From a virus (taxonomy: Duplodnaviria > Heunggongvirae > Uroviricota > Caudoviricetes): a stretch of DNA of 4,650 nt. A program made the position numbers and the translations under genes. The first letter of the stretch is position 1, and the number at the start of each line of letters is the position of its first letter. The stretch lies in the IMG/VR virus record IMGVR_UViG_2698536392_000019. One strand, given 5' to 3'. A model generated the notes under the pieces. The model worked only from the letters and a program-made list of their open reading frames with translations. It made no database searches and had not been told where the DNA came from. Positions 3,902-4,572 of the stretch are shown here, piece after piece.

Positions 3902-4290
3902 GATAAATCCTTATTGCATGTTTATATCCATTAATAATATCAATCCATTGATATTATTAGTGTCACATATCCGATGTGGACAGCTTTAATATATAGCTGT
4001 TTGAATGCTTGATTGATGTGACTTAGATCTCAAAATTAAGTTGTTAAATTTACCAGTTTATCGCTTGAACACTTAAAATAAATTATAAATCCTTCTGTTA
4101 TTGTTTTTATAATTCAAATTATTGTTGGTTGTATAACTTGATTACATCTTTACTCTAAGTGTTATAAATATTTTATACTGATATTAGTTTTATTATATAT
4201 ATTCTTAATGAAAATGAGCATAAAACTAAGACATATAATGCTTGGCAGCTTTATGCTCTTCTGATTGGCTGTATGTTTGATGACAAAAAA
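3902..4290 (-). promoter_or_regulatory. AT-rich 5' leader/promoter region of nleA, candidate H-NS/Ler-controlled region
   Basis: Very AT-rich ORF-free DNA immediately upstream of nleA, with repeated motifs and palindromes. No single -35/-10 pair can be singled out by eye in this composition. Confidence 0.4.
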
Positions 4291-4323
4291 TTAGCGCAAG
4301 AAGAAAAAATCACCTTGCGCTAA
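4285..4323 (-). terminator. Putative rho-independent terminator for leftward transcription
   Basis: 10-bp inverted repeat TTAGCGCAAG (4291-4300) / CTTGCGCTAA (4314-4323) with a 13-nt loop. On the minus strand the hairpin is followed by a T6 run (plus-strand A6 at 4285-4290). Confidence 0.4.
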
Positions 4324-4572
4324 TGCTCTGTCTCAGGTCACTAATCACACCTAACTCATTGATTAATTGTGACTCTAAATGTAGTGTTTTGTCGCGTTTT
4401 GCAGTATGTTATTTAATCTATTATATGAATAACATAATGATTTTTAATGTATTTTTGTAATTTACTCTCCTTCTGACATGGAAGTTGTTCGTTCAAAATC
4501 TTATTAAATATCAAGTTGTTAAATCTGGTAAGTCATTATTGGTCAAAATAAAATCATTATCCGATTTCAATT

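Follow-up and report, generated by a model that had tools for sequence, protein, structure and literature searches.

In bacteriophage lambda, int transcripts that start at the CII-activated promoter pI stop at the terminator tI and are stable. N-antiterminated transcripts from pL cross the U-run, the stem is lengthened by pairing across that run, and RNase III cuts the resulting long duplex, after which degradation of the int message proceeds from the 3' end. The details of RNase III cleavage and 3' degradation are said to go back to Guarneros et al. 1982, Schmeissner et al. 1984 and Plunkett & Echols 1989. The sib element lies distal to int, and synthesis of Int depends on the promoter used (PMC2951348; PMC5300877). 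Here we describe a hairpin in a 4,650-nt stretch of DNA from the IMG/VR virus record IMGVR_UViG_2698536392_000019 (hereafter, the window), situated on the minus strand upstream of the type III secretion system (T3SS) effector gene nleA. This hairpin is, with high confidence, the homologue of the lambda tI terminator/sib retroregulator and the final element of a lambda-type int–attP–tI/sib module that persists here as a fossil.

Window positions 4277-4328 align with lambda 27530-27582 with 52 of 53 aligned positions identical. The stems of the two hairpins are the same, and the sole difference is one loop base that is missing from the window. The match is not confined to the hairpin: window 4230-4650 aligns without a break with lambda 27449-27919, from the hairpin through the attachment (att) site to the end of int, although the att arms beside the hairpin are only ~65% identical to lambda, as compared with 52/53 in the hairpin block. 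Annotation in other phages points to the same element. The HK97 GenBank feature 'sib retroregulation site' (a homologous 50 nt on the int-sense strand) maps to window 4283-4331, and the GenBank record of phage O276 labels the homologous hairpin 'Transcription terminator tI'. On the minus strand, the int stop codon is followed by the P' arm, the core, the P arm and the hairpin, in the same order and with the same spacing as in lambda; the hairpin is thus located distal to int, beyond attP and on the int-sense strand. The layout int–attP–tI/sib–b-region cargo, where the cargo is nleA, is that of lambda, fossilized in a degraded, Sakai Sp9-like prophage inserted at ompW. The element itself is already known; the present copy is one that has been orphaned by loss of int and lies unannotated in a prophage of the enterohemorrhagic Escherichia coli (EHEC) type. 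RefSeq leaves both the hairpin and the att site unannotated in the genomes examined, and we know of no Rfam family for lambda sib.

The hairpin has the anatomy of an intrinsic terminator. Read directly, the plus strand at 4282-4332 is GACAAAAAA-TTAGCGCAAG-AAGAAAAAATCAC-CTTGCGCTAA-TGCTCTGTC, where the inverted repeat TTAGCGCAAG / CTTGCGCTAA (4291-4300 / 4314-4323) makes up a 10-bp core stem, and in the predicted structure of the leftward RNA a G+C-rich stem is followed by a U-run (Table 1). The minus-strand RNA 4330-4275 has a predicted folding energy of -21.3 kcal/mol, compared with -8.0 ± 2.3 kcal/mol for shuffled sequences (z = -5.8), and none of 200 shuffled sequences folded as well. The inverted repeat, the U6 tract and the fold statistics bear out in structural terms the leftward intrinsic terminator at 4291-4323, with its minus-strand T-run, that had been proposed in the preliminary description. 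A meaningless chance hairpin in AT-rich DNA would be in keeping with the 22-35% G+C content of the surrounding sequence and with a consensus terminator scan of the window, in which the 4290-4324 hairpin was not among the matches. However, that scan accepts only loops of 3-8 nt, and the hairpin was likely missed because its nominal 13-nt loop exceeds this limit. The same scan found nothing in lambda's own tI region either, and we therefore treat the negative result for the window as a limit of the tool and discount it. The fold statistics, the 52/53 identity with an experimentally defined lambda element and conservation in >100 phage contigs leave a chance origin with a negligible probability, and homology to lambda tI/sib rules it out.

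Table 1. Features of the fossil module and its surroundings in the window
Feature	Position	Strand	Basis or detail
sib-type extended duplex	4282..4332	-	Predicted fold; GACAGAG (4332-4326) pairs with UUUUGUC (4288-4282) in read-through RNA
U6 tract	4285..4290	-	A6 on plus strand; expected 3' end of leftward transcript; aligns with A6 of lambda tI
tI hairpin	4290..4324	-	12-bp stem, 4290-4301 with 4313-4324; loop 4302-4312; coincides with O276 'Transcription terminator tI'
P arm	4329..4380		Mapped from lambda Int arm-site features
P1 arm-type site equivalent	4329-4348		16/20 identical to lambda feature 'int 1'
IHF consensus at H1 position	4352-4364		Perfect match
P2 arm-type site equivalent	4361-4380		15/20 identical to lambda feature 'int 2'
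att core equivalent CCTTCTGACATGGAA	4469..4483		Alignment; 15 bp
P' arm	4509..4560		Aligns with lambda and mEp235 P' arms
IHF consensus at H' position, TATCAAGTTGTTA	4509-4521		Perfect match
P' arm-type site AAGTCATTAT	4530-4539		Repeat
P' arm-type site TGGTCAAAAT	4540-4549		Repeat
P' arm-type site AAATCATTAT	4551-4560		Repeat
int 3' stump, lambda/HK022 type	4557..4621	-	Translation; last 21 codons and TAA at 4559-4557
IS3 terminal 29 nt	4622..4650		Truncates int; transposase gene on minus strand, beyond window
nleA	2579..3901	-	Open reading frame and RefSeq; same-strand cargo gene past tI; listed for context

The features that underlie retroregulation in lambda can also be recognized in the predicted RNA. 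If transcription were to continue past the U-run, the stem would be extended by 7 bp in the window, as compared with 6 bp in lambda, and the read-through RNA would be expected to form a long duplex like the one that RNase III cuts in lambda; cleavage here would follow by analogy. Both functions, termination and formation of the sib duplex, thus appear to be preserved in the modeled structure. In a working phage, transcripts from pI would stop at tI, and read-through from pL would expose the int message to RNase III. In the window, IS3 has reduced int to 21 codons, and the module is a fossil. A functional int with pI and pL transcription upstream is not what is found: only those 21 codons are left, with IS3 adjoining, and none of pI, pL or xis was detected near the hairpin. 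Because int is gone and these three elements are absent nearby, retroregulation has no target. It is defunct in the present genome, and with respect to this function the hairpin is a structural homologue only. The intact stem and U-tract would still stop leftward transcription that leaves IS3 or the att region, and we infer from the predicted structure that the hairpin continues to end leftward transcripts in the present strain.

We examined conservation with a scan of viral contigs that was anchored on a motif just outside the stem and supplemented with loci already collected; together these yielded 138 occurrences, with 67 unique segments of 100 nt. In 134 of the 138 phage or prophage occurrences, the left arm and A-run are kept next to the anchor motif, and nearly all of the unique segments listed have an identical stem with a loop that varies in both length and sequence. 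Beyond the U-run, the sequences fall into ~10 unrelated groups, for example lambda ea59, HK97 tfa, the mEp235 tail-fiber gene and the nleA region. Since these left-hand neighbors are unrelated, the hairpin marks the outer edge of a conserved int–attP–sib block, and nleA and other cargo take the place that the b region has in lambda. In four IMG/VR contigs (L026, L028, L084 and L090), other sequence takes the place of the left half of the hairpin, so that something, probably the end of an insertion sequence (IS), has been inserted in the loop. At least some prophages that carry nleA can evidently do without the hairpin. In two of these four contigs, nleA is inverted and lies several kb away.

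Several points must be set against this explanation of the hairpin. Its loop is 1 nt shorter than that of lambda, though loop length varies naturally among the homologues. The stem is essentially invariant across the 67 unique segments, and covariation therefore speaks neither for nor against the structure. The transcript end at 4285 is predicted rather than observed, and any shielding of nleA in the present-day genome is something that we infer.

The minus strand at 4557-4621 translates to ...DSMAAHYRDSREREWDKIEIG-stop, which is a lambda/HK022-type integrase C-terminus; the corresponding ends are ...DTMASQYRDDRGREWDKIEIK in lambda and ...DSMAARYRDSRGREWDKIEIDK in mEp235. It had been stated that no open reading frame (ORF) of any size is present on the minus strand of 4324-4650. 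This is wrong because the int stump is there, and a trivial 33-amino acid minus-strand ORF is also found at 4413-4514. The stump was absent from the mechanical ORF list because its frame enters the IS3 end at ~4622 and then leaves the window. No intact gene is located upstream of the hairpin, and the stretch is an attP-like site followed by an integrase stump. The description of a terminator without an upstream gene was accordingly sound with regard to the terminator, but overlooked that this is the lambda tI/sib element in its usual position after int and attP.

The 29 nt that close the window recur at the end of another IS3 copy in the source genome, which identifies 4622-4650 as an IS3 terminus. 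An IS3 transposase is annotated directly past the window edge, and the int/IS3 junction is ambiguous by ~5 nt (4622-4626). More of int survives in sister strains, where 90-3040 has 195 bp, Sakai has a pseudogene of 693 bp (ECs_1813) and O55:H7 RM12579 has 995 bp, the longer stumps being labeled in RefSeq as tyrosine-type recombinase pseudogenes. No intact integrase with the present core type was found in 16 loci, where the longest frame has 267 amino acids and is without the N-terminal arm-binding domain; a working ancestor of the module was thus not recovered. Of these 267 residues, 266 align with the Int proteins of mEp235 (HK022-type; 88% identity) and lambda (72%). The module is already dead in every relative sampled and has been eroded further in the window's strain. 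The IS3 end abuts int at differing points between strains (window 4622-4650; locus L003 9658-9903). The window's strain has lost ~150 bp more of int than strain 90-3040, consistent with IS-adjacent deletion.

The AT-rich stretch between the hairpin and the stump (4329-4560) is an attP-like site. Its P and P' arms are of the lambda type, and Int arm-type and IHF sites flank the core as they do in the lambda family. There are four matches to the IHF consensus in the window, compared with 0.32 expected. The core, CCTTCTGACATGGAA, is identical to the lambda core GCTTTTTTATACTAA at only 6 of 15 positions, with both arms conserved, and also differs from the HK022/mEp235 core CCTTTAGGTGAATAA; it has the identity of neither the lambda nor the HK022 type of known attB. 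As the core is unlike that of lambda and that of HK022/mEp235, it represents a third core specificity within the lambda/HK022 integrase family. At the level of sequence, the different core implies a different attB.

The hairpin had also been suggested to end a small RNA (sRNA) made from this stretch. Under this explanation, the hairpin would belong to a free-standing sRNA gene in which a promoter in the att region drives a ~125-130-nt minus-strand, Hfq-binding regulatory RNA that ends at the hairpin. A promoter-like site with 10/12 matches does occur on the minus strand (-35 TTAAAA at 4447-4442, -10 TATAAT at 4425-4420), ~130 nt upstream of the U-run. Hfq-dependent sRNAs typically end in a stem-loop and a U-tract, and EHEC prophages are rich in such RNAs (PMC4104026). 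However, promoter-like sites in 4286-4650 are no more common than expected by chance (1, compared with 2.3 ± 1.6 in shuffled sequences), and the -10 element of the 4447→4420 site is not conserved at the aligned position in mEp235 or lambda. An Rfam search of the whole window at E ≤ 1 returned no matching family for this region, its only match being a spurious miRNA away from the hairpin.

The Hfq crosslinking data that had been named as a check likewise fail to support an sRNA. The homologous region of O157 Sakai carries the annotation of prophage Sp9, with the orthologous stretch at 1,803,002-1,803,733. The Sakai table of Hfq-crosslinking peaks predicted to encode sRNAs (EcOnc01 onward) contains no coordinate in 1,803,100-1,803,699, an interval that covers both the hairpin and the att site of the orthologue, and in the part of the table covered for Sp9 the entries lie elsewhere in the prophage. 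The RNase E CLASH (crosslinking, ligation and sequencing of hybrids) supplements yielded only chance digit matches for the Sakai orthologue. The abundant sRNAs of EHEC prophages are located 3' of PR' (PMC4104026), and the sequence upstream of the hairpin is fully accounted for as Int- and IHF-binding att DNA. An own promoter, a discrete transcript and Hfq binding, which characterize an Hfq-dependent prophage sRNA, are not supported for this locus by the promoter, Rfam and Hfq-table searches. Without a promoter excess, an Rfam match or an Hfq table entry at the Sakai orthologue, the sRNA explanation is unsupported and we regard it as very unlikely. The hairpin is an ordinary leftover of a decayed prophage and not a new sRNA gene. 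We also considered the 'antisense RNA' annotated left of sib in DN1, but this falls within a part of the lambda b region that is absent from the window, which makes it irrelevant here.

The nleA promoter is under H-NS/Ler control. A second function that had been proposed for the hairpin is to insulate this promoter from read-through from beyond the window. As a selected insulator, it would be kept because it shields the promoter region from read-through out of IS3 or the upstream prophage. The terminator is 384 nt upstream of the nleA start codon and is co-oriented with nleA and with the neighboring IS3 transposase, which is also read leftward. Furthermore, the window and Sakai have the same stem although the region has diverged by 4.5%. 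This divergence, however, predicts only ~0.9 changes per 20 stem bases, such that the absence of changes is no evidence of selection. The hairpin is nearly identical in phages that do not carry nleA, including lambda, HK97 and mEp235; some contigs have what is probably an IS inside the hairpin loop and nleA moved away; and the second copy of the hairpin, next to nleF, is decaying and has a stem mismatch. Insulation is therefore plausible mechanically, from the distance and orientation, but the hairpin is probably not an nleA-specific device, because it adjoins ~10 unrelated left-hand sequences. We consider selection for insulation improbable. From the range of neighbors, any shielding of nleA from leftward read-through most likely arises incidentally from the way in which the lambda genome is laid out.

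A broader form of re-use can also be envisaged, although we give it little credence. The orphaned tI might define or stabilize the 3' end of a regulatory leftward RNA, either born in the att region or read out of IS3, or might be needed to insulate nleA from IS3. More broadly, the invariant tI/sib–attP block might serve as a right-hand homology arm for swaps of T3SS-effector cargo between lambdoid prophages.

The nleA 5' leader has a structure of its own. A perfect 13-bp inverted repeat with a 2-nt spacer is present at window 3932-3959 on the minus strand, 31-58 nt upstream of the start codon. As RNA, this repeat is predicted to form a hairpin (z = -4.7) with GGA in its loop. Additional GGA motifs, including one in the Shine-Dalgarno region, lie closer to the start codon. 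CsrA controls nleA translation, and the predicted hairpin and the GGA motifs fit the two CsrA sites reported (review PMC7873438). As DNA, the palindrome gives two overlapping matches to the IHF consensus.

Window positions 3900-4650 match the chromosomes of E. coli 2013C-4830 and 2012C-4227 with 100% identity. The lambdoid prophage in which they lie there is heavily degraded, and sister strain 90-3040 carries the same prophage beside ompW. The gene order is tail-fiber genes, nleA (minus strand), hairpin, attP, int stump, IS3 (transposase on the minus strand), nleH1-2' and nleF. A second, decaying tI/sib hairpin with a P arm is located ~3.7 kb to the right of the window, after nleH1-2'/nleF/IS256' (locus L002 13059-13336; NZ_CP027325). 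This copy is 79% identical to that of the window and has a mismatch in its stem. It continues through a core of the lambda type, GGCTTTTTATACTAATTTGAGCGAAAC, into ~120 bp with homology to the chromosomal sequence that flanks lambda attB on its bio side. The bio-side flank matches that carried by the lambda-bio transducing phage DN1 (81% over 287 nt). The second copy thus represents a lambda-type attR to which some foreign host flank is joined. This suggests that right ends of successive phages, one of them aberrantly excised, went into the making of the effector region.

Left of nleA, the tail-fiber ORF 74-1063 (plus strand) encodes collagen-like Gly-X-Y repeats (Pfam Collagen) followed by a Phage_fiber_C domain, and a second, short Phage_fiber_C ORF is found at 1065-1334. 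A hairpin at 1346-1376 on the plus strand (-23.1 kcal/mol, z = -5.2), flanked by runs of A and T and lying directly after the tail-fiber C-terminal gene, was missed by the consensus terminator scan and is probably a bidirectional terminator that closes the late operon. A 127-nt direct repeat derived from the tail-fiber C-terminal gene is present at 1194-1320 and 2039-2165, the two copies being 91% identical. They bracket a 180-amino acid ORF (1555-2097) that gave no Pfam match, and overlap its end; the repeat may be the footprint of an earlier cargo insertion. In Sakai, the nleG pseudogene ECs_1811 is annotated between the tail-fiber genes and nleA.

The significance of these findings is chiefly that of a correction. 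What seemed an orphan terminator beside a virulence gene is the textbook lambda tI/sib element, and the seeming lack of an upstream gene reflects an integrase that IS3 has nearly erased. Because RefSeq annotates neither the hairpin nor the att site, flagging tI/sib elements should prevent over-calling of sRNAs in the cargo regions of EHEC prophages. The effector genes, nleA here and nleH/nleF at the second copy, sit exactly at the position of lambda's b region, immediately beyond tI/sib. In an excised phage with N antitermination, read-through transcripts from pL would run across them; under other conditions, they would be shielded by tI.

The Hfq-binding sRNAs of EHEC (AgvB, AsxR and other EcOnc RNAs) likewise reside in a lambdoid prophage of an EHEC-type strain and have a stem-loop and U-tract at the 3' end. 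They differ from the present hairpin in being located at the late-gene moron site 3' of PR' rather than at att (PMC4104026), and they have no sequence or Rfam similarity to the hairpin region. The HK022/mEp235-type module is closer. Its integrase is the closest match of the integrase stump (88% over 266 amino acids in the sister strains), the att arms in the window are slightly closer to mEp235 than to lambda, and mEp235 bears the same tI/sib hairpin, whereas the HK022-type core CTTTAGGTGAA differs from that of the present module (CTTCTGACATG / CCTTCTGACATGGAAG). The tI/sib element of lambda itself is on the same strand relative to int and in the same place, just outside the P arm of attP, and has the same predicted terminator hairpin and the same extended duplex on read-through. 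The window differs from it in a loop that is one base shorter, in the state of the gene that was served, which IS3 has cut to 21 codons with no xis, pI or pL nearby, and in the left-hand neighbor, which is the T3SS effector gene nleA in the window and ea59 with the rest of the b region in lambda.
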